Source of the DNA: Okeania sp.
Lineage (GTDB): Bacteria; Cyanobacteriota; Cyanobacteriia; Cyanobacteriales; Microcoleaceae
DNA: 5,522 nt
Assembly: GCF_035285525.1 (NCBI RefSeq)
Contig: NZ_JAYKGW010000196.1
Coordinates: forward strand, 1 to 5,522
Direction of reading: 5' to 3'
Under the pieces are notes generated by a model that was not told the origin of the DNA, did not search any database, and saw only the letters and a list, made by a program, of their open reading frames with translations. Below are positions 1-5,522 of this stretch, one piece after another. Every line of letters begins with the position of its first letter. Position 1 is the stretch's first letter. The position numbers were made by a program, and so were the translations under genes.

Positions 1-50
1 ATGCATTTTCTTAAGCACCCCAACAGAGGTGATGAGTGATGAATTTTTCC

Positions 51-73
51 ACTATTGTTCTATACGCAATAGT
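51..73. repeat. Inverted repeat (hairpin) ACTATTG-N9-CAATAGT in repeat copy 1, loop ttctatacg
   Basis: Arms at 51-57 (actattg) and 67-73 (caatagt) are perfect reverse complements. The loop is 9 nt. The hairpin is followed by taatgcattttctt. Confidence 0.7.
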
Positions 74-197
74 TAATGCATTTTCTTAAGCACCCCAACA
101 GAGGTGATGAGTGATGAATTTTTCTAACTATTGCGCAAATGAGAAGTTTCATTTTCTTAAGCATCCCAACAGAGGTAATGAGTGATGAAATTTTCCC

Positions 198-220
198 ACT
201 ATTGTTCTATACGCAATAGT
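198..220. repeat. The same hairpin in repeat copy 3, loop ttctatacg
   Basis: Arms at 198-204 (actattg) and 214-220 (caatagt). The loop is identical to that of copy 1. Confidence 0.7.
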
Positions 221-273
221 TAGTGCATTTTTTTAAGCACCCCAACAGAGGTAATGAGTGATGAATTTTTCCC

Positions 274-296
274 ACTATTGCGTATAGAGCAATAGT
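274..296. repeat. The same hairpin in repeat copy 4, with the loop in reverse-complement orientation (cgtatagag)
   Basis: Arms at 274-280 (actattg) and 290-296 (caatagt). Loop cgtatagag matches the reverse complement of ttctatacg (cgtatagaa) at 8 of 9 positions, but matches the direct loop at only 1 of 9. Confidence 0.7.
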
Positions 297-487
297 TAAT
301 TCATTTTGTGAAGCACTCGCTAGAGGGGATGAGCGGACATTAGTAAGTCTTATTGGCGGAACATTTCTACACCGAAAACTCAGTCATATATTACTTTAGT
401 ACAGGTAATTTGGGTTTGAGGAGTATGAGAAACAGAAATCACTGCTACTACTTTTAACTTGCGTGTAGCGATATACTTCCTCAAGAT

Positions 488-636: not shown

Positions 637-3600
637 ATGGAAAAAGTTGAAATGGTAAATAAACAACCTCAACAACTAGCAGTAACTACTGGATTTTTAG
701 ACCAAGTAGCAATAGAAAATGAAACTATTTGTTTAAGCGGATGGGTTATCTCTTTTGAGTCTGAACCTGTGACTAATTTTAAGATTTTATTTGGTAGTAA
801 ACAATTAACAGAATTTTCATTAACTCAAGGTATTCCTAGTCCTGCGGTTAAGAAAGCTCATCCAAATATTTCTGCTGCTACTAATGCTCGGTTTATTATT
901 AGGTTGCCGATGAATAAAGAGCGGCAAGAGGAATTTAAAGATGCTCTAATTATTTTAATTCCTTTAGTAGAAAATCGTGAGGGAGAACCTCTGTTAAATG
1001 CTGTTACTCCAGCTTTATCTTCTGCGATTAAAACACCAAAAGCAGATAATATACCAACTACTACTCCGCAAGTAGAATTGATTTCTGTTCATGTACCAAA
1101 AGCTGCTGGAACTGCTTTTAGACAGATTTTATTACAGGTTTATGGAACTCAAGGAGTTCTGACTGATAAAACTGATATGTTTGAAGAAAATATGCCAGCT
1201 AGTATTCATTGGCAAACTAAGGTTATTGAGGGTCATTTTCGAGCTGGTAAATACGATGAATTATTTCCTAATGCTAAGAGAATTACATGGTTTAGAGAAC
1301 CAGTTCGGCGGTTAATTTCTGATTATTGTTTTCGTCATATATCTAATCCAACAAAAGACCATCTAAATAAAGACAAGTTATTAAAGTTTGCTCAAGGTAA
1401 TAGTAATTTGATGGCTTATTGTGTGAATGGTAAGTCTCTAGATTATTTTGATTTTGTGGGAATTACTGAATATTTTGCTGAGGATTTATTGGCATTGAAA
1501 AATCTTTTGGGTTGGTCTGATTATGAGGTGGTTTATCAAAATAGAAATCCTTATCCAGAGTATGTTCAGTTTCAAAAGGAAGTTTTTTCAGATCAAAAGT
1601 TAATGGATAAATTAGCATCAGCTAATAGTCAAGATATGGAACTTTATGCTGCTGCTTTGAAATTAGCTGAAGGAAGAAGGAGGAAGGAGGAAGGAGGAAG
1701 TGCTATTAGTTTACTAGAGAAAGATATAGTTAATTTGGATCGGCATCTGGTTACAGAAAAAACAGAGTTATTACCAACATTTGGTTCTCTTGATAAGGCA
1801 GAATTTGATAATGAAGAATTACGACTTGTAGGTTGGGTGGTTTCTCCTGATTCTGGGAAAGTAAAAGGTTTCAAATTAACTATTGGAAATACTAGAATAG
1901 AAAAGTTTGAAGCTGCTTTAAATTTGCCTAGTCCAGATGTGAAAAAATTGCGCCCCGATCTGAATAATTCTGGTCAATCTAGATTCCGTATTAAGGTACT
2001 TCTAAGTCAAGAACAAATTTTACAATACCAAAATTCTCAGATTGGTTTAATTCCTATTTTTAAAGATGGTGAAGGTAAGGTTTTATTGAAAGGGTTGGGT
2101 AATTCCAAAACAGCTACTTTTTCTGAAGCTCCCCAAGTTTCTGAACAACCAAAACTTATTGCTCCAATTGAAACAATTACAACAGTAGGTCATTTAGATC
2201 AAGTAACAATTTCTAATCAAAGTTTAGTTATATCTGGTTGGGTAGGTTCTCATAATTTTGGTTCTGTAGAGGGTTTTAAGGTTGTTATTAATGGTGAAAA
2301 ATTTGCTTCTTTTGCCAAAAAATTAGGTTTACCGAGTCCAGATATAGCAAAGGCTCGTCCTAAACTTAATAATGCTAAAAGTTCTCGGTTTCGCCTGGAA
2401 GTTTCTCTCTCTCCAGAACAACTTCAGAACTGTGAAAATTCTCTAATTTCTCTAACTCCAATATTTCAAGGAAAAGAAGGAAATATTCTGTTTAAATTAT
2501 TTAAACCTTCTCTATCTATTCCTGATGATAAATATATAGGTGGGGGCAAAAATAATTTTATTCCCAGAAGCTTTAAATTTTTAGGCAATTTTATCCAGAA
2601 TGTCGGTCTTCAACCCACTGCTGAAGTTTTAGAAATTGGTTGTGGAATTGGGAATATTGCTTATGGTCTTTCCTATTATTTAAAATCTCCAGGACGTTAT
2701 GCAGGATTTGATTTTTCTGAGGAGTTAATATCTTGGGCGCAGCAAAATATTACTACTGAAAAACCTCATTTCAAATTTAGTCGGATAGATTCAGATTTGC
2801 AACTTCCCGATGATGAGAAAAGTTTTGATTTTGTCTTTATTAATGCTCGGTTTACTCAGGTGGGTGGAAGTGAAGTTCGTAATTATTTAGAGCAGGTTTA
2901 TCGAGTTTTAAAACCGGGTGGTCGTCTGTTATTTAATTGTTTTTTGGTTAACCAACAGTCAGAGAAATTAATTGCTCAAGGAAGGAGTTCTCAACCTCTT
3001 GTTCATCGACTTCAGGAAGGTTTTGCTAAGGACAAAAATGCTATAGAAAAAGGTATGGGTTTTCTGGAGTCTTTATTGTTGGAGTGGGTGAATAATGCTG
3101 GTTTTAATATGTTAGGAAAATCCTATGGTTCTTGGTGTGGTAGAATTGGTTGTACAAGTTATCCAGATATGTTGATTGTTGAGAAGGAAGAAGTAAGGAA
3201 GTCAGAAGTCAGAAGTCAGAAATCAGAAGTTGGTATTAGAAAGGAAGAAGTTAAGAAGTTAGAAGTTGATGTTGAGAAATCAGAAGAAAGTCAGTCAGAA
3301 GTTAGTATTCAGAAGCAGGAAGAAGTTGCGAAAATAATTCCTGAAACTACTCCTTCTATTTCTCCTTTACTTACAGAAATAATGGCTGATTTGGAAAAGT
3401 CTAAAACAGATATTCAAGAAATGGAAGCTGATTTAGAAAGGTTCAAATCTAGAAAGAAAAATACTTCTAATAAAAATTTATCGGAGTTGGAAGCACAAAC
3501 TCCTATGAAAAAAAAAAGTATAACTGAGGAGATAGAATTAGATACTATTTTGTCTGGGGTTAAAGACCAAACCCCGACGGTGGAAACAATTTCTAAACCA

Positions 3601-5394
3601 GTAGAAAAAGTTACTATTTTGTCTGGGGTTAAAGACCAAACTCCGACGGTGGAAACAACTTCTACACAAGTAGAAAAAGTTACTATTTTGCCTAAGTTAA
3701 GAGACAAAAATTCTGAAGCAAAAGAACAAGAATTATTAGGTTTATCAGGAGTAACGGTTGAAAAGTTTTGGGAAATTATTAATCCAGTAATTTCAAACAT
3801 AGATGGAAAAAGAGATGTTTCTCAACCTGCTATTAGTATTCTGACTCCTACTTGGAATTCTTCTTTAGATTGGTTTGTCGAAACAGTTTTAAGTGTTTTA
3901 AACCAATCTATTATTAACTGGGAATGGTGTATTGTTGATGATTGTTCTAAACAAGAAGAAATTAAAAATGTTCTGGTAGGTTTAGCAGAAAAAGAACCGA
4001 GAATTAAAGTTCTACTTTCTGAAGAGAATGGTAATATTAGTGCTACGACAAATAAAGCTTTAAAAATGGCTACAGGAGAATTTATTTGTATGTTAGACCA
4101 TGATGATACTCTCGCACCTACCGCTTTAGAAGATAGTTTAAATAAGTTAGCGGAAGGATTTGATGTGGTTTATTCTGATGAAGATAAAATTGATTTTTCT
4201 GGATTAAATTATGTCGTTCCATTTTTTAAACCTGACTGGTCTCCTGAATATTTTCGTGGTGTAATGTATGTTGGTCATTTATTATGTGTACGTCGAGAAA
4301 TAGCTTTAGCTGTTGGAGGTTTTAACAGTCAGTTTGATGGGGTGCAAGACTATGAGTTTATGTTACGAGTTTCTGAGCAAACTAATAATATTGCTCATAT
4401 TCCTAAACATCTTTATCATTGGCGACAAGTGAGGGGAAGTTTATCTGGAGATCCTGATGCTAAACCGGGTATTGAAAAAGTACAACAAGCTGCGGTTAAT
4501 GCTCATTTACAAAGAGTTGGTTTACCAGCAAAAGCGGAACCTGGTTTGGGTAGACATTTGGTAAATATTAATCCTTTCCCAAGAAAGAATTTTCCTTTGA
4601 TGAGTTTGATTATTGCTTCTCCTAATATTTCTGAAAGTCTCAATCAATGGTTGGAAAAATTCTTGTCTCTTTCTATTTATCCCCAAAATGAAGTAATTAT
4701 AGTTGGTGAGAATGTAGAAAAAGATGTAATTAAAAATCCTCATGTGAAGGTTTTAAGTTTATCGGATAAGTTCACTTATTCTCGTGCTTATAATTTGGGT
4801 GCAAAAACTACTAAAGGTGAATATTTTGTTTTTCTAAATACTGATTTAGAACCTACAGTTAATGATTGGCAAAGACATCTTTTATATTATGCTGAACAAC
4901 CGGATATTGGTGCTGTGGGAGGATTTTTAGTTGCGCCTAATGGAACTGTTCAACACGCAGGTATTGTGTTAAGAAAGTCGGAAAAAGTTAATTATGTGAT
5001 GCAAGGTTTTCCGACTAATGATTATGGTTATGCAGGTTCTTTGGTTTGTGCAAGAGAGGTGTCTGCTGTGAGTAAAGATTGTTTGATGGTGAGTCGGAAA
5101 AATTTTGAGTTAGTTGGAGGTTTTAATAAGTATTATCATTCTAATTATCCGGATGTTGATTTATGTTTGAAGTTGCGAAAAGAAGGTAAACAAATTATGT
5201 TTACTCCTCGTTGTGTTTTAATTAACCGTAAGTCAGAGGAAGATATACAGGAAAATTATGATTTTCTTGATTATGAGTTGTTGTTAGAACAATGGCAAGT
5301 TAATCTGGAGTTGGGAGACCCTTATTATAATCCTAATTTTGATGTTGAAAAGAATGATTATTCTGTCTGGAAGAAGGAAGACAAGGAAGACTAA
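637..5394 (+). CDS. Multidomain glycan-biosynthesis/modification protein: sulfotransferase, class I SAM-dependent methyltransferase and two GT2 glycosyltransferase domains, with a triplicated 104-aa domain of unknown function
   Basis: A 4758-nt open frame in AT-rich DNA, where the other five frames are full of stops. Enzyme motifs appear in a sensible order: HVPKAAGT and FREPVRRLISDY, then VLEIGCGIGN, GFDFS and LKPGGRLLF, then ISILTPTWN, DDCS, DHDD and YSDEDK, then FLNTDLE, GTVQHAGIV and YPDVDLCLKLR, and finally DPYYNPNF. No TM-length hydrophobic segment is visible. The start is uncertain between ATG 637 and the in-frame ATG 652, and neither has a strong RBS. The stop is TAA at 5392-5394. Confidence 0.95.
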   Translation: MEKVEMVNKQPQQLAVTTGFLDQVAIENETICLSGWVISFESEPVTNFKILFGSKQLTEFSLTQGIPSPAVKKAHPNISAATNARFIIRLPMNKERQEEFKDALIILIPLVENREGEPLLNAVTPALSSAIKTPKADNIPTTTPQVELISVHVPKAAGTAFRQILLQVYGTQGVLTDKTDMFEENMPASIHWQTKVIEGHFRAGKYDELFPNAKRITWFREPVRRLISDYCFRHISNPTKDHLNKDKLLKFAQGNSNLMAYCVNGKSLDYFDFVGITEYFAEDLLALKNLLGWSDYEVVYQNRNPYPEYVQFQKEVFSDQKLMDKLASANSQDMELYAAALKLAEGRRRKEEGGSAISLLEKDIVNLDRHLVTEKTELLPTFGSLDKAEFDNEELRLVGWVVSPDSGKVKGFKLTIGNTRIEKFEAALNLPSPDVKKLRPDLNNSGQSRFRIKVLLSQEQILQYQNSQIGLIPIFKDGEGKVLLKGLGNSKTATFSEAPQVSEQPKLIAPIETITTVGHLDQVTISNQSLVISGWVGSHNFGSVEGFKVVINGEKFASFAKKLGLPSPDIAKARPKLNNAKSSRFRLEVSLSPEQLQNCENSLISLTPIFQGKEGNILFKLFKPSLSIPDDKYIGGGKNNFIPRSFKFLGNFIQNVGLQPTAEVLEIGCGIGNIAYGLSYYLKSPGRYAGFDFSEELISWAQQNITTEKPHFKFSRIDSDLQLPDDEKSFDFVFINARFTQVGGSEVRNYLEQVYRVLKPGGRLLFNCFLVNQQSEKLIAQGRSSQPLVHRLQEGFAKDKNAIEKGMGFLESLLLEWVNNAGFNMLGKSYGSWCGRIGCTSYPDMLIVEKEEVRKSEVRSQKSEVGIRKEEVKKLEVDVEKSEESQSEVSIQKQEEVAKIIPETTPSISPLLTEIMADLEKSKTDIQEMEADLERFKSRKKNTSNKNLSELEAQTPMKKKSITEEIELDTILSGVKDQTPTVETISKPVEKVTILSGVKDQTPTVETTSTQVEKVTILPKLRDKNSEAKEQELLGLSGVTVEKFWEIINPVISNIDGKRDVSQPAISILTPTWNSSLDWFVETVLSVLNQSIINWEWCIVDDCSKQEEIKNVLVGLAEKEPRIKVLLSEENGNISATTNKALKMATGEFICMLDHDDTLAPTALEDSLNKLAEGFDVVYSDEDKIDFSGLNYVVPFFKPDWSPEYFRGVMYVGHLLCVRREIALAVGGFNSQFDGVQDYEFMLRVSEQTNNIAHIPKHLYHWRQVRGSLSGDPDAKPGIEKVQQAAVNAHLQRVGLPAKAEPGLGRHLVNINPFPRKNFPLMSLIIASPNISESLNQWLEKFLSLSIYPQNEVIIVGENVEKDVIKNPHVKVLSLSDKFTYSRAYNLGAKTTKGEYFVFLNTDLEPTVNDWQRHLLYYAEQPDIGAVGGFLVAPNGTVQHAGIVLRKSEKVNYVMQGFPTNDYGYAGSLVCAREVSAVSKDCLMVSRKNFELVGGFNKYYHSNYPDVDLCLKLRKEGKQIMFTPRCVLINRKSEEDIQENYDFLDYELLLEQWQVNLELGDPYYNPNFDVEKNDYSVWKKEDKED
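685..996 (+). other. Domain X copy 1 (aa 17-120), unknown function, possibly a beta-sandwich or carbohydrate-binding module
   Basis: Aligns without gaps over 104 aa to aa 381-484 (36/104 identical by hand count). Shared motifs are TxGxLD, GWV, FK, PSPxV/IxK..P, RF, IP and EG..L. Confidence 0.7.
1072..1671 (+). other. PAPS-dependent sulfotransferase-like domain (aa ~146-345)
   Basis: ISVHVPKAAGTAF (nt 1090-1113 encode HVPKAAGT) resembles the hxPKxxGT 5'-phosphosulfate-binding loop of the Sulfotransfer_2-type family. WFREPVRRLISDY resembles the RxPxxRxxSxY 3'-phosphate-binding motif, and EGHF supplies a candidate catalytic His. The assignment rests on motif memory, not a search. Confidence 0.7.
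1669..1703 (+). repeat. Heptamer tandem repeat GAAGGAG x3 perfect (1676-1696), with imperfect flanking units, inside the CDS
   Basis: The sequence reads gaaggaa gaaggag gaaggag gaaggag gaagtgc. Three perfect units total 21 nt, so the frame is kept, and the region encodes EGRRRKEEGGS. It sits exactly between the sulfotransferase domain and domain X copy 2. Confidence 0.9.
1777..2088 (+). other. Domain X copy 2 (aa 381-484)
   Basis: Gap-free 104-aa alignment to copy 3 with 48/104 identities by hand count (TFGSLD..GWV..GFK..LPSPDVKKLRPDLNN..SRFRI..LIPIF..EGKVLL). Confidence 0.75.
2182..2493 (+). other. Domain X copy 3 (aa 516-619)
   Basis: TVGHLD..GWV..GFK..LPSPDIAKARPKLNN..SRFRL..LTPIF..EGNILF. 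See copies 1 and 2. Confidence 0.75.
2554..3180 (+). other. Class I SAM-dependent methyltransferase domain (aa ~640-848)
   Basis: Motif I is VLEIGCGIGNIA (nt 2626-2655). The acidic post-I residue lies in GFDFS. FDFVFINA is motif II-like, and VLKPGGRLLFN is the typical motif after it. Confidence 0.85.
3200..3234 (+). repeat. Heptamer tandem repeat AGTCAGA x3 perfect (3200-3220), plus aatcaga and a partial unit, inside the CDS
   Basis: The sequence reads agtcaga agtcaga agtcaga aatcaga agttggt. Three perfect units total 21 nt and encode KSEVRSQ. The repeat lies at the start of the linker after the methyltransferase domain. The following ~100 nt hold many degenerate NAGAAGT copies. Confidence 0.9.
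3508..3517 (+). repeat. Homopolymeric A10 tract inside the CDS (codons KKK+S after Met957)
   Basis: The sequence reads atg aaaaaaaaaa gt, with ten consecutive A at 3508-3517. Confidence 0.95.
3544..3692 (+). repeat. 69-bp tandem duplication (3544-3612 and 3613-3681), plus the first ~11 nt of a third unit, inside the CDS linker
   Basis: The two units differ at 4 of 69 positions by hand alignment. They encode TILSGVKDQTPTVETISKPVEKV and TILSGVKDQTPTVETTSTQVEKV. The third unit starts actattttgcct and then diverges. Confidence 0.95.
3829..4431 (+). other. GT2 (GT-A fold) glycosyltransferase domain A (aa ~1065-1265)
   Basis: ISILTPTWN (N-terminal beta-strand), VDDCS, DHDD as the DxD motif (nt 4096-4107), YSDEDK, GGFN...QDYEFMLR and LYHWRQ. 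This is the pattern typical of the N-terminal half of two-domain GT2 O-antigen/S-layer glycan transferases. Confidence 0.85.
4594..5241 (+). other. Second GT2-like glycosyltransferase domain B (aa ~1320-1535)
   Basis: MSLIIASPN, YSRAYNLGAKTTKGEYFVFLNTDLE, IGAVGGFLVAPNGTVQHAGIV, VSAVSKDCLMVSRKNFELVGGFN and YPDVDLCLKLRKEGKQIMFTP, followed by the DPYYNPNF tail. It matches the common C-terminal GT2 half, which I remember as LNxD...QHAG...EDVDLCLR. Confidence 0.75.
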
Positions 5395-5522
5395 GGAAGA
5401 CTAAGGTAGACAAGGTAGACAAGGTAGACAAGGTAGACAAGGTAGACAAGGTAGACAAGGTAGACAAGGTAGACAAGGTAGACAAGGTAGACAAGGTAGA
5501 CAAGGTAGACAAGGTAGACAAG
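5374..5522. repeat. Nonamer tandem array: AAGGAAGAC x3 (two T insertions between units) then AAGGTAGAC x13 perfect, plus a partial unit. It runs off the right window edge.
   Basis: AAGGAAGAC units lie at 5374, 5383 and 5393, with single T at 5392 and 5402. AAGGTAGAC units run from 5403 every 9 nt to 5519, then aag to 5522. The first two variant units encode the C-terminal KEDKED of the CDS. Confidence 0.97.

Follow-up and report, generated by a model that had tools for sequence, protein, structure and literature searches.

A conserved cyanobacterial fusion of a sulfotransferase, a methyltransferase and two GT2 modules, and its relation to Wzm/Wzt-dependent glycan assembly

Can one cytoplasmic polypeptide both extend a glycan and modify it, and would such modification decorate the chain or end it? 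The question is raised by a 5,522-bp contig of a metagenome-assembled genome (MAG) of Okeania, a marine filamentous cyanobacterium. This contig is the entire stretch of DNA analysed here (the window) and carries a single long open reading frame (ORF), uninterrupted from 637 to 5394 on the + strand. The original prediction, drawn from the sequence alone, had seen in its product a sulfotransferase (ST), a methyltransferase (MT) and two family 2 glycosyltransferases (GT2), and had proposed an all-in-one enzyme that polymerises and caps a glycan. All four assignments hold by Pfam, NCBIfam and PDB profile, and every motif quoted for them is present. Moreover, collinear orthologues occur in a clade of marine cyanobacteria, and relatives of the GT2 pair adjoin the Wzm/Wzt transporters of ATP-binding cassette (ABC)-type polysaccharide pathways. 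We lean towards a soluble glycan synthase that decorates its chain during synthesis, with capping possible, and its product is probably a sulfated, methylated glycan.

Domain identities and integrity of the fusion

The ORF and its parts, with amino acid (aa) positions, are as follows.

637..5394, + strand: whole ORF, 1585 aa including the stop; order immunoglobulin (Ig)-like, ST, Ig-like, Ig-like, MT, linker, GT2, GT2
676..1035, + strand: X1, Ig-like beta-sandwich module, aa 14-133 (internal repeat and hidden Markov model (HMM) envelopes; fold taken from the X3 model)
1063..1647, + strand: Sulfotransfer_2 / heparan-sulfate 2-O-sulfotransferase (HS2ST)-like carbohydrate O-sulfotransferase domain, aa 143-337 (Pfam 27.2 bits, cutoff 22)
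1768..2127, + strand: X2, Ig-like module, aa 378-497 (internal repeat and HMM envelopes)
2167..2532, + strand: X3, Ig-like module, aa 511-632 (beta sandwich in AlphaFold2 (AF2))
2593..2988, + strand: class I S-adenosylmethionine (SAM)-dependent MT, aa ~653-784 (motif I VLEIGCGIGN; Pfam Methyltransf_25/11/31/23)
3169..3822, + strand: linker, aa 845-1062, 218 aa; E/K/S/T-rich low-complexity tandem repeats, predicted mostly disordered
3364..3462, + strand: the linker's only helix that is both conserved and confident, aa 910-942, LLTEIMADLEKSKTDIQEMEADLERFKS (AF2 predicted local distance difference test (pLDDT) 80-95, heptad scan, 11 orthologues)
3730..3780, + strand: conserved ELLGLSGVTVEKFWEII motif before GT2a, common to Wzt-linked relatives (moderate-confidence AF2 helix)
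3823..4536, + strand: GT2 module a, aa 1063-1300 (motifs IVDD, LDHDD, YSDEDK and GVQDYE conserved family-wide)
4552..5367, + strand: GT2 module b, aa 1306-1577 (motifs FLNTDLE, QHAGIV and DVDLCLK)

The ST domain scores above the gathering threshold of Sulfotransfer_2 (PF03567) and has a 5'-phosphosulfate-binding (5'-PSB) loop, PKAAGT (aa 154-159), a candidate catalytic residue, His200, and a 3'-phosphate-binding (3'-PB) motif, R220-x-P-x-x-R-x-x-S228-x-Y230. In an alignment of 16 family members, made up of fused copies and of paralogues from neighbouring genes, H-x-P-[KR]-x-A-G, G-H-F and R-x-P-x-x-x-L-x-S-x-Y are invariant. The profile of this family matched HS2ST in the PDB (3F5F/4NDZ, E 6e-5), with the 5'-phosphosulfate loop, the catalytic histidine of H-G-H (His200 in the window) and the 3'-phosphate motif in register. 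Judged by threshold and motifs, the predicted ST assignment is sound. The MT combines a glycine-rich motif I with above-threshold Pfam matches (Methyltransf_25 61 bits, cutoff 27; Methyltransf_25/11/31 on aa 662-770 with E 1e-14 to 1e-16; Pfam MT models over aa ~656-784 with E down to 2e-16), as a class I SAM-dependent enzyme should, and PDB methyltransferases match it with E down to 2e-9.

GT2a has the full set of GT2 characters, namely Pfam matches to Glycos_transf_2 (aa 1067-1188, E 9e-34, two stretches) and Glyco_tranf_2_2 (aa 1216-1260) together with DxD-type motifs (LDHDD, YSDEDK), and its closest solved relative is the chondroitin synthase K4CP (E 3e-19). GT2b matches Pfam Glyco_tranf_2_5 (aa ~1306-1530), an MftF-like NCBIfam model (aa 1306-1528) and an HpsN-like one. 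Two GT modules stand at the C-terminus, as in polymerase-terminator fusions, of a protein for which no transmembrane (TM) segment is predicted. The top 19-residue Kyte-Doolittle window is 1.2, in agreement with the absence of a TM stretch noted originally, and from its hydropathy the protein is predicted to be soluble or membrane-peripheral. NCBI places the start 5 codons later (1580 aa) and annotates the product merely as 'MAG: glycosyltransferase [Okeania sp.]'.

A fusion of this kind could be an assembly chimera or a pseudogene, in which ordinary separate genes were joined by an error of MAG assembly. Tandem repeats lie at both ends of the 5.5-kb contig, and the linker is itself repetitive, which would suit such an error. 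However, collinear full-length orthologues are found in ~20 independent assemblies, including isolate genomes and the finished genome of Trichodesmium erythraeum IMS101, and the frame stays open for 1585 codons in DNA of 33-36% G+C. With stops expected at ~7% of random codons, the chance of such a frame is ~1e-53 by our own arithmetic. We consider the probability of a chimera to be practically negligible, and the single ORF of the original prediction is intact. Minus-strand ORFs within the gene are all short.

The repeats at the contig ends were characterised separately. A 76-bp tandem repeat (window 1-316; 4.2 copies, 82% match) reaches the 5' end; each unit contains two small hairpins with a fold z-score of -1.75, which is not significant, and Rfam gave no match for it. 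None of the 82 fetched loci contains its 23-nt core, and therefore it is not a common upstream element of the orthologous clusters. At the other end, 16.3 copies of the 9-bp repeat AAGGTAGAC (5374-5522) begin within the final ORF codons (KEDKED and the stop) and extend to the contig 3' end, creating a spurious minus-strand (STL)n ORF (5333..5521). The MAG contig is probably only 5.5 kb long because of these terminal repeats. The window was also scanned for Rfam families, tRNAs, promoters and terminators, with no significant match.

The Ig-like modules and the linker

The segments X1, X2 and X3, which had been left unnamed, are three copies of one ~115-aa module, mutually 31-34% identical, of which orthologues carry two to four. 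The AF2 model of X3, built from a 19-sequence alignment, is a beta sandwich (pLDDT 90, predicted TM-score 0.81). Structure prediction and Foldseek, which the original prediction had proposed as a check, thus yielded an Ig-like sandwich for X3, but with generic Ig-like matches only in the PDB (none at E <= 0.001; TM-scores ~0.3-0.5). The X sequence profile had no match in the PDB, and X1-X3 matched no Pfam family even at E<=10, Big_7 (PF17957) included. A word-indexed search with the X profile gave merely two fragments and was replaced by an exhaustive HMMER search, which found 523 representative proteins. Full-length matches lie in MT, GT2, GT92 and ST2 proteins, and partial matches in 4-9 tandem copies lie in proteins with Big_7, Amidase_3, Glucosaminidase or GH70. 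The link between X and Big_7 is transitive and distant, the X profile matching repeats (for example in P0038) that are themselves Big_7 (E 9e-11). A relationship of X to the cap-binding domain Wzt_C was ruled out (hhalign probability 0.4%). From the X3 model we read X as a divergent Ig-like module that would hold glycan or act as a spacer.

The charged linker, originally put at ~216 aa, is real, and can now be described as low-complexity repeats around a single conserved helix. Its DNA contains a 7-nt-based array (3178-3326) and a 69-bp unit in 2.1 copies (3543-3690), and its protein sequence contains 11 prolines. When aa 836-1070 were modelled with AF2, 162 of the 235 residues had pLDDT <50 and were without regular structure, and a helix of moderate confidence covered the VTVEKFWEII motif. 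Orthologues otherwise 65-77% identical have linkers as short as 160 and as long as 402 aa, but the heptad-compatible core is constant at 32-41 aa. In 11 orthologues, residues within the 910-942 helix and the ELLGLSGVT motif show no variation. We regard this helix, on its modelled structure, as a candidate short coiled-coil or oligomerisation element. The long coiled coil of polymerase-terminator fusions of the WbbB / O7 ORF6 type was not found in the linker, which has a single ~33-residue helix. In two outgroup proteins (loci L026 and L027) the linker is 163-194 aa long, proline-free and heptad-rich. As modelled, the Okeania linker is a tether with one helix, and a molecular ruler is absent; it suits a tether over a ruler because it is disordered and variable in length.

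This bears directly on the possibility that the ST and/or the MT modify only the non-reducing terminal sugar, stopping elongation and signalling to the carbohydrate-binding module (CBM) of a Wzt encoded elsewhere, with the linker setting chain length. Such an enzyme would in effect be a kinase-to-sulfotransferase swap of the methyl-phosphate terminators. A coiled-coil-like heptad helix kept in every orthologue speaks for such an enzyme, but it sits poorly with the shortness of that helix, the disorder of most of the modelled linker and its 2.5-fold variation in length.

Gene clusters, relatives and probable mode of action

Scanning one genome per species for homologues gave 79 loci, of which 22 were orthologous and 57 were further relatives. 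In the latter, the GT2-GT2 unit (aa ~1030-1577) is represented by 40-55% identical proteins, stand-alone or MT-fused, from many lineages (Leptolyngbya, Stenomitos, Pseudanabaenaceae, a 'Synechococcales' MAG, Verrucomicrobiota, Acidobacteriota, Acidimicrobiia and Methanomicrobiales). Wzt (ABC_tran + Wzt_C) adjoins the unit in at least eight loci (L024, L026, L027, L047, L058, L073, L078 and L079), and in two of these (L024 and L027) Wzm is Pfam-confirmed. Relatives from Pseudanabaenaceae and the Synechocystis order already have the unit joined to an N-terminal MT by a true coiled coil. The Pseudanabaenaceae MAG locus L027 has the order glmS, wzm, wzt, a 1027-aa protein and GT4+MT. The 1027-aa protein (8675-11758) consists of an MT (aa 28-183), a proline-free heptad-rich stretch (~236-410) and GT2-GT2, and is 50% identical to window aa 985-1577, ELLxLSGxT motif included; its MT has no BLAST similarity to the window MT. 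In Leptolyngbya (L024) the genes run gmd, wzm, wzt, MT, MT, MT, GT2-GT2, GT4, MT, GT2-GT2. Reading the genes upstream of this wzm as rmlABCD was wrong, since they encode a tetratricopeptide repeat (TPR) protein, RuvB, an unknown protein and GDP-mannose 4,6-dehydratase (Gmd); the examined loci showed no rml genes.

A ~385-aa GT4 (Glyco_trans_1_4) is a conserved partner of GT2-GT2, also present in L023, L025, L077 and L026/L027, and fused to an MT in the last two. The Okeania GT4 (L017 20138-21295) and that of Leptolyngbya (L024 11665-12819) are 60% identical (E 4e-178). The pathway's adaptor glycosyltransferase may be this GT4. Because GT2-GT2 and GT4 are common to the transporter-linked and the Okeania-type clusters, ABC-type, fully cytoplasmic assembly would be the best-supported route in the Okeania clade, as judged from these relatives. 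The window protein itself appears to belong, as a derived form, to the MT-linker-GT2-GT2 proteins of Wzm/Wzt-dependent polysaccharide pathways. Of the terminator-polymerase layout originally proposed, the kinship with an MT-GT2-GT2 family beside Wzm/Wzt(Wzt_C) stands and the coiled-coil ruler does not.

Two relatives of the GT2-GT2 unit deserve separate mention. In Acidobacteriaceae KBS 96 (L047 9563-13252), a 1229-aa protein directly upstream of a Wzt with Wzt_C contains two copies of the GT2a-GT2b unit and so has four GT2 modules. Contigs of Methanomicrobiales/Methanoregulaceae MAGs (L056, L072) encode a GT2-GT2 46% identical to the cyanobacterial unit, which suggests horizontal transfer or mis-binning.

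The order Ig-ST-Ig-Ig-MT-linker-GT2-GT2, or a close variant, occurs in ~20 genomes (Okeania, Dapis, Trichodesmium, other Microcoleaceae and three unclassified MAGs); in T. erythraeum IMS101 (L022) the orthologue, at ~2,243,655-2,249,795 on the minus strand of NC_008312, has 2046 aa, with an extra MT between Ig-like modules. Same-strand genes preceding the orthologues encode ST1+MT24+GT2_4 (~900 aa), GT92/GT2_4+X+MT (~650-1480 aa) and ST2-X-MT (~615-625 aa) proteins. After the orthologues come an opposite-strand HTH_17 gene and, 3-5 kb on, the 385-aa GT4. The clusters total 3-5 ST and 3-4 MT domains, and each GT-bearing protein has its own MT, which fits sugar-by-sugar decoration. In T. erythraeum (NC_008312, ~2.236-2.262 Mb) five ST domains (Sulfotransfer_1/3 and Sulfotransfer_2), spanning three Pfam families and lying upstream of and within the 2046-aa orthologue, are packed with extra MTs into 18 kb; a SelO gene follows on the opposite strand.

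The ST is not always fused. In Trichodesmium MAG_R03 (L010), whose region has no N runs, ST2 stands alone as a 233-aa gene; next come an ST3 gene and then a 1337-aa X-X-MT-X-linker-GT2-GT2 gene with its own start. Therefore, fusion of the ST is a lineage variant and not obligatory. Other apparent splits were set aside: in L020/L021 the breaks match 100-N or X runs in the repetitive linker, so these are not unfused modules, and in L016/L019 they coincide with N runs. A 440-446-aa ORF between the ST2 and polymerase genes (L010, L014, L016), which had been taken for a transposase, is a Sulfotransfer_3/1 protein.

For polymerase activity, substrates, export route and the choice between in-chain and terminal modification, we infer the following. 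The two C-terminal GT2 modules would extend a lipid-linked glycan at the cytoplasmic membrane face, an elongating role suggested by analogy because tandem GT2 modules elongate in O7 ORF6 (PMC11231755). From the flexibly tethered N-terminal cassette, the HS2ST-like ST, dependent on 3'-phosphoadenosine 5'-phosphosulfate (PAPS), would sulfate the nascent glycan and the SAM-dependent MT would O-methylate it, with the three Ig-like modules as spacers or glycan-holding domains. In Okeania, Dapis and Trichodesmium the protein would work with two or three neighbouring ST/MT/GT fusions and the conserved GT4, and the joint product would be a heavily sulfated, methylated surface or extracellular glycan. 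The tethered modifications would mainly be co-synthetic decoration of the chain, and one of them may also stop elongation. Decoration is favoured because the linker is flexible and variable, the ST fusion is optional, each GT protein has its own MT, and ST domains are many.

Several observations weigh against this interpretation. The layout of modifier, spacer and two GTs is exactly that of the known terminator-polymerase fusions. The original prediction had proposed looking for a wzm/wzt-type transporter and PAPS genes in the flanks; no ABC ATPase, Wzm or PAPS genes lie within 10 kb in the 22 orthologous loci, which also contain no polysaccharide exporter or primer candidate, and the window is without neighbouring genes. 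Moreover, the NTDLE of the GT2b metal-binding motif (4831-4851, aa 1399-1405) is an exception in its clade, since the first acidic residue is Asn in 20/23 Microcoleaceae-type sequences counted (NTNLE, NTNLK, NINLE), and on this account GT2b activity may be altered or weak in the clade. The outgroup motif is NNDxE.

How far do these points favour the capping of a terminal sugar? The window protein has the module order of O7 ORF6 (MT, kinase, Ig-like CBM, coiled coil, GT2, GT2) and of O12 WbbB (PMC11231755), and in the nearest outgroup the MT-coiled coil-GT2-GT2 protein lies directly behind wzm-wzt, with a terminal-cap-binding Wzt_C. Furthermore, cyanobacterial exopolysaccharide (EPS) and O-antigen genes are typically scattered (PMC4594306), which makes a distant wzm/wzt plausible. 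On the other side, besides the nature of the linker and the absence of Wzm/Wzt from the 22 loci, the window and outgroup MTs are not detectably homologous beyond the fold, and the ST is unfused in the clean Trichodesmium variant. The ST and MT domains of each cluster far exceed the needs of a cap, and their number speaks for in-chain decoration no less than for capping. A search for Wzt_C, which tells for neither side, gave at least 120 matches; all those listed carry the domain, and among the matches listed no named one is from Okeania, Trichodesmium or Dapis. We regard capping as possible but on balance unlikely. A bolder version of it is slightly more doubtful: that sulfate, with or without O-methyl, is a new chain-terminating and export-licensing cap, with the short coiled coil and an evolvable disordered spacer setting length and a sulfate-reading Wzt CBM encoded elsewhere in Trichodesmium/Okeania genomes.

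The degenerate GT2b motif of most orthologues also fits a protein that is not a polymerase, in which each GT2 acts once, so that some other acceptor (for instance a glycolipid, a glycoprotein, a core oligosaccharide or a different polymer) receives a defined sulfated/methylated di-/oligosaccharide as a branch or end-group. A cluster without polymer-export or priming genes would be expected of such a protein, and the many GT families (GT2, GT92-like, GT4) and modifiers would suit a complex, non-repetitive structure. However, homologous GT2-GT2 proteins lie in wzm/wzt clusters, where the tandem GT2 is the polymerase (PMC11231755), and the Acidobacteriaceae protein beside Wzt has four such modules. 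We think it improbable.

The lack of a nearby exporter could also mean that the product is a methylated, sulfated oligo- or polysaccharide that stays in the cytoplasm, by analogy with the methylmannose/methylglucose polysaccharides of mycobacteria. Every protein of the cluster is soluble, and the coupling of GT to MT runs gene by gene. Against this stand the family link of GT2-GT2 to Wzm/Wzt clusters, the Ig-like Big_7-type modules, which are typical of cell-envelope glycan enzymes, and the extracellular nature of the cyanobacterial sulfated glycans described (PMC8205485). A cytoplasmic product is thus very improbable, and a soluble synthase with co-synthetic decoration is the reading we carry forward.

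The flanks of the clusters also vary. In Dapis sp. BLCC M126 a 697-aa IRX15/GXM-like protein (L001 2574-4667) and a large TPR protein replace the Okeania ST1+MT24 gene. The IRX15/GXM-like domain is of the plant glucuronoxylan methyltransferase type, and with its GT92- and GT61-like matches the Dapis cluster has enzyme families resembling a plant cell wall set. Okeania cluster flanks (L002, L003, L014) contain IS605 OrfB/TnpB (Cas12f-like) genes, Y1 transposase copies and a PemK toxin pair, and the stand-alone ST2 ORF of L014 has a TnpB-like N-terminal extension.

If the ST does cap chains, a new terminator chemistry and a new Wzt CBM specificity are predicted, the known modifier-spacer-polymerase fusions having methyl, phosphate/methyl-phosphate or Kdo (3-deoxy-D-manno-octulosonic acid) terminating modules. 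A compact soluble enzyme family of this kind could make a defined sulfated, methylated glycan in vitro. To our knowledge, very few bacterial sulfated-polysaccharide genes have been tied to a product, synechan being the worked example. The family occurs only in marine cyanobacteria that form blooms or mats, among them Trichodesmium, a diazotroph of global importance. An ecologically important clade carries the undescribed architecture. Exopolymers of T. erythraeum are thought relevant to colony formation and iron capture.

Comparison with known systems

Among characterised systems, O7 ORF6 of Klebsiella pneumoniae (Kelly et al. 2024, J Biol Chem, PMC11231755) comes closest by description; it was published in 2024, and the original prediction had missed it. 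Like the window protein, it is a soluble single polypeptide with N-terminal modifiers including a SAM MT, an Ig-like CBM, a spacer and two C-terminal GT2 modules, and it belongs to an ABC-transporter-dependent pathway. However, where O7 ORF6 has a cryptic kinase and a methyl-phosphate cap, the window protein carries a sulfotransferase of the PAPS type, and the O7 ORF6 paper nowhere contains the string 'sulf'. O7 ORF6, the only terminator reported with an Ig-like module (PMC11231755), has one such module and the window protein three. Its long coiled coil and adjoining wzm/wzt contrast with the mostly disordered spacer of the window protein and with orthologous loci that have no transporter within 10 kb.

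Next in closeness are Raoultella/Klebsiella O12 WbbB and E. coli O9a WbdD/WbdA, in which the terminating modifier is kept distant from the polymerising GTs (PMC11231755, PMC3482155), as in the window layout. WbbB holds everything in a single chain, and WbdD has two modifying activities (kinase and MT). The terminators differ, being a Kdo transferase in WbbB, a kinase/MT in WbdD and a sulfotransferase in the window, as do the GT families. Moreover, the rigid, extended coiled coil that defines WbbB and WbdD/WbdA is not found in the window linker. The cyanobacterial MT-coiled coil-GT2-GT2 proteins (L027, L026) share with the window protein the MT-spacer-GT2-GT2 order, 50% GT2-GT2 identity, ELLxLSGxT and the GT4 partner. 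They differ in being without a sulfotransferase and without Ig-like modules, in their MT subfamily, in a heptad-rich spacer of 163-194 aa, and in being operonic with wzm-wzt(Wzt_C).

Geobacillus stearothermophilus WsaE, compared by description, joins an MT to two GT2-type modules in an ABC-type S-layer glycan pathway; unlike the window protein, it is without a sulfotransferase and without Ig-like modules.

Cyanobacteria typically make sulfated polysaccharides, and T. erythraeum, with 30 ST genes, has the highest number among the genomes surveyed (PMC8205485). Synechan (xss) of Synechocystis 6803 resembles our system in being a cyanobacterial sulfated polysaccharide with cytoplasmic STs encoded among GT genes (PMC8205485). 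However, xss is Wzx/Wzy-dependent, and its STs are separate genes with no fused MT (PMC8205485). Near the orthologues no Wzx, Wzy or polysaccharide co-polymerase (PCP) was annotated, the only multi-TM neighbours being DsbD_TM and other housekeeping-type proteins. An Actinoplanes study likewise describes ST and MT as separate genes, in a Wzx/Wzy cluster. HS2ST and the window ST have in common the catalytic His and two PAPS-binding motifs, 5'-PSB and 3'-PB, but HS2ST works on uronic acids in the animal Golgi, and the likeness is limited to the N-terminal ~100 profile residues.

In the literature searched we found no description of a sulfotransferase inside a modifier-spacer-polymerase fusion. 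The original prediction had not recognised the combination of ST and MT from any characterised system. In summary, the window protein departs from the terminator-ruler family in two defining features, the long coiled coil and the adjoining wzm/wzt, and we regard it as working like that family without filing it as a member. Its architecture is real, conserved and undescribed, and the new element is the built-in sulfotransferase.

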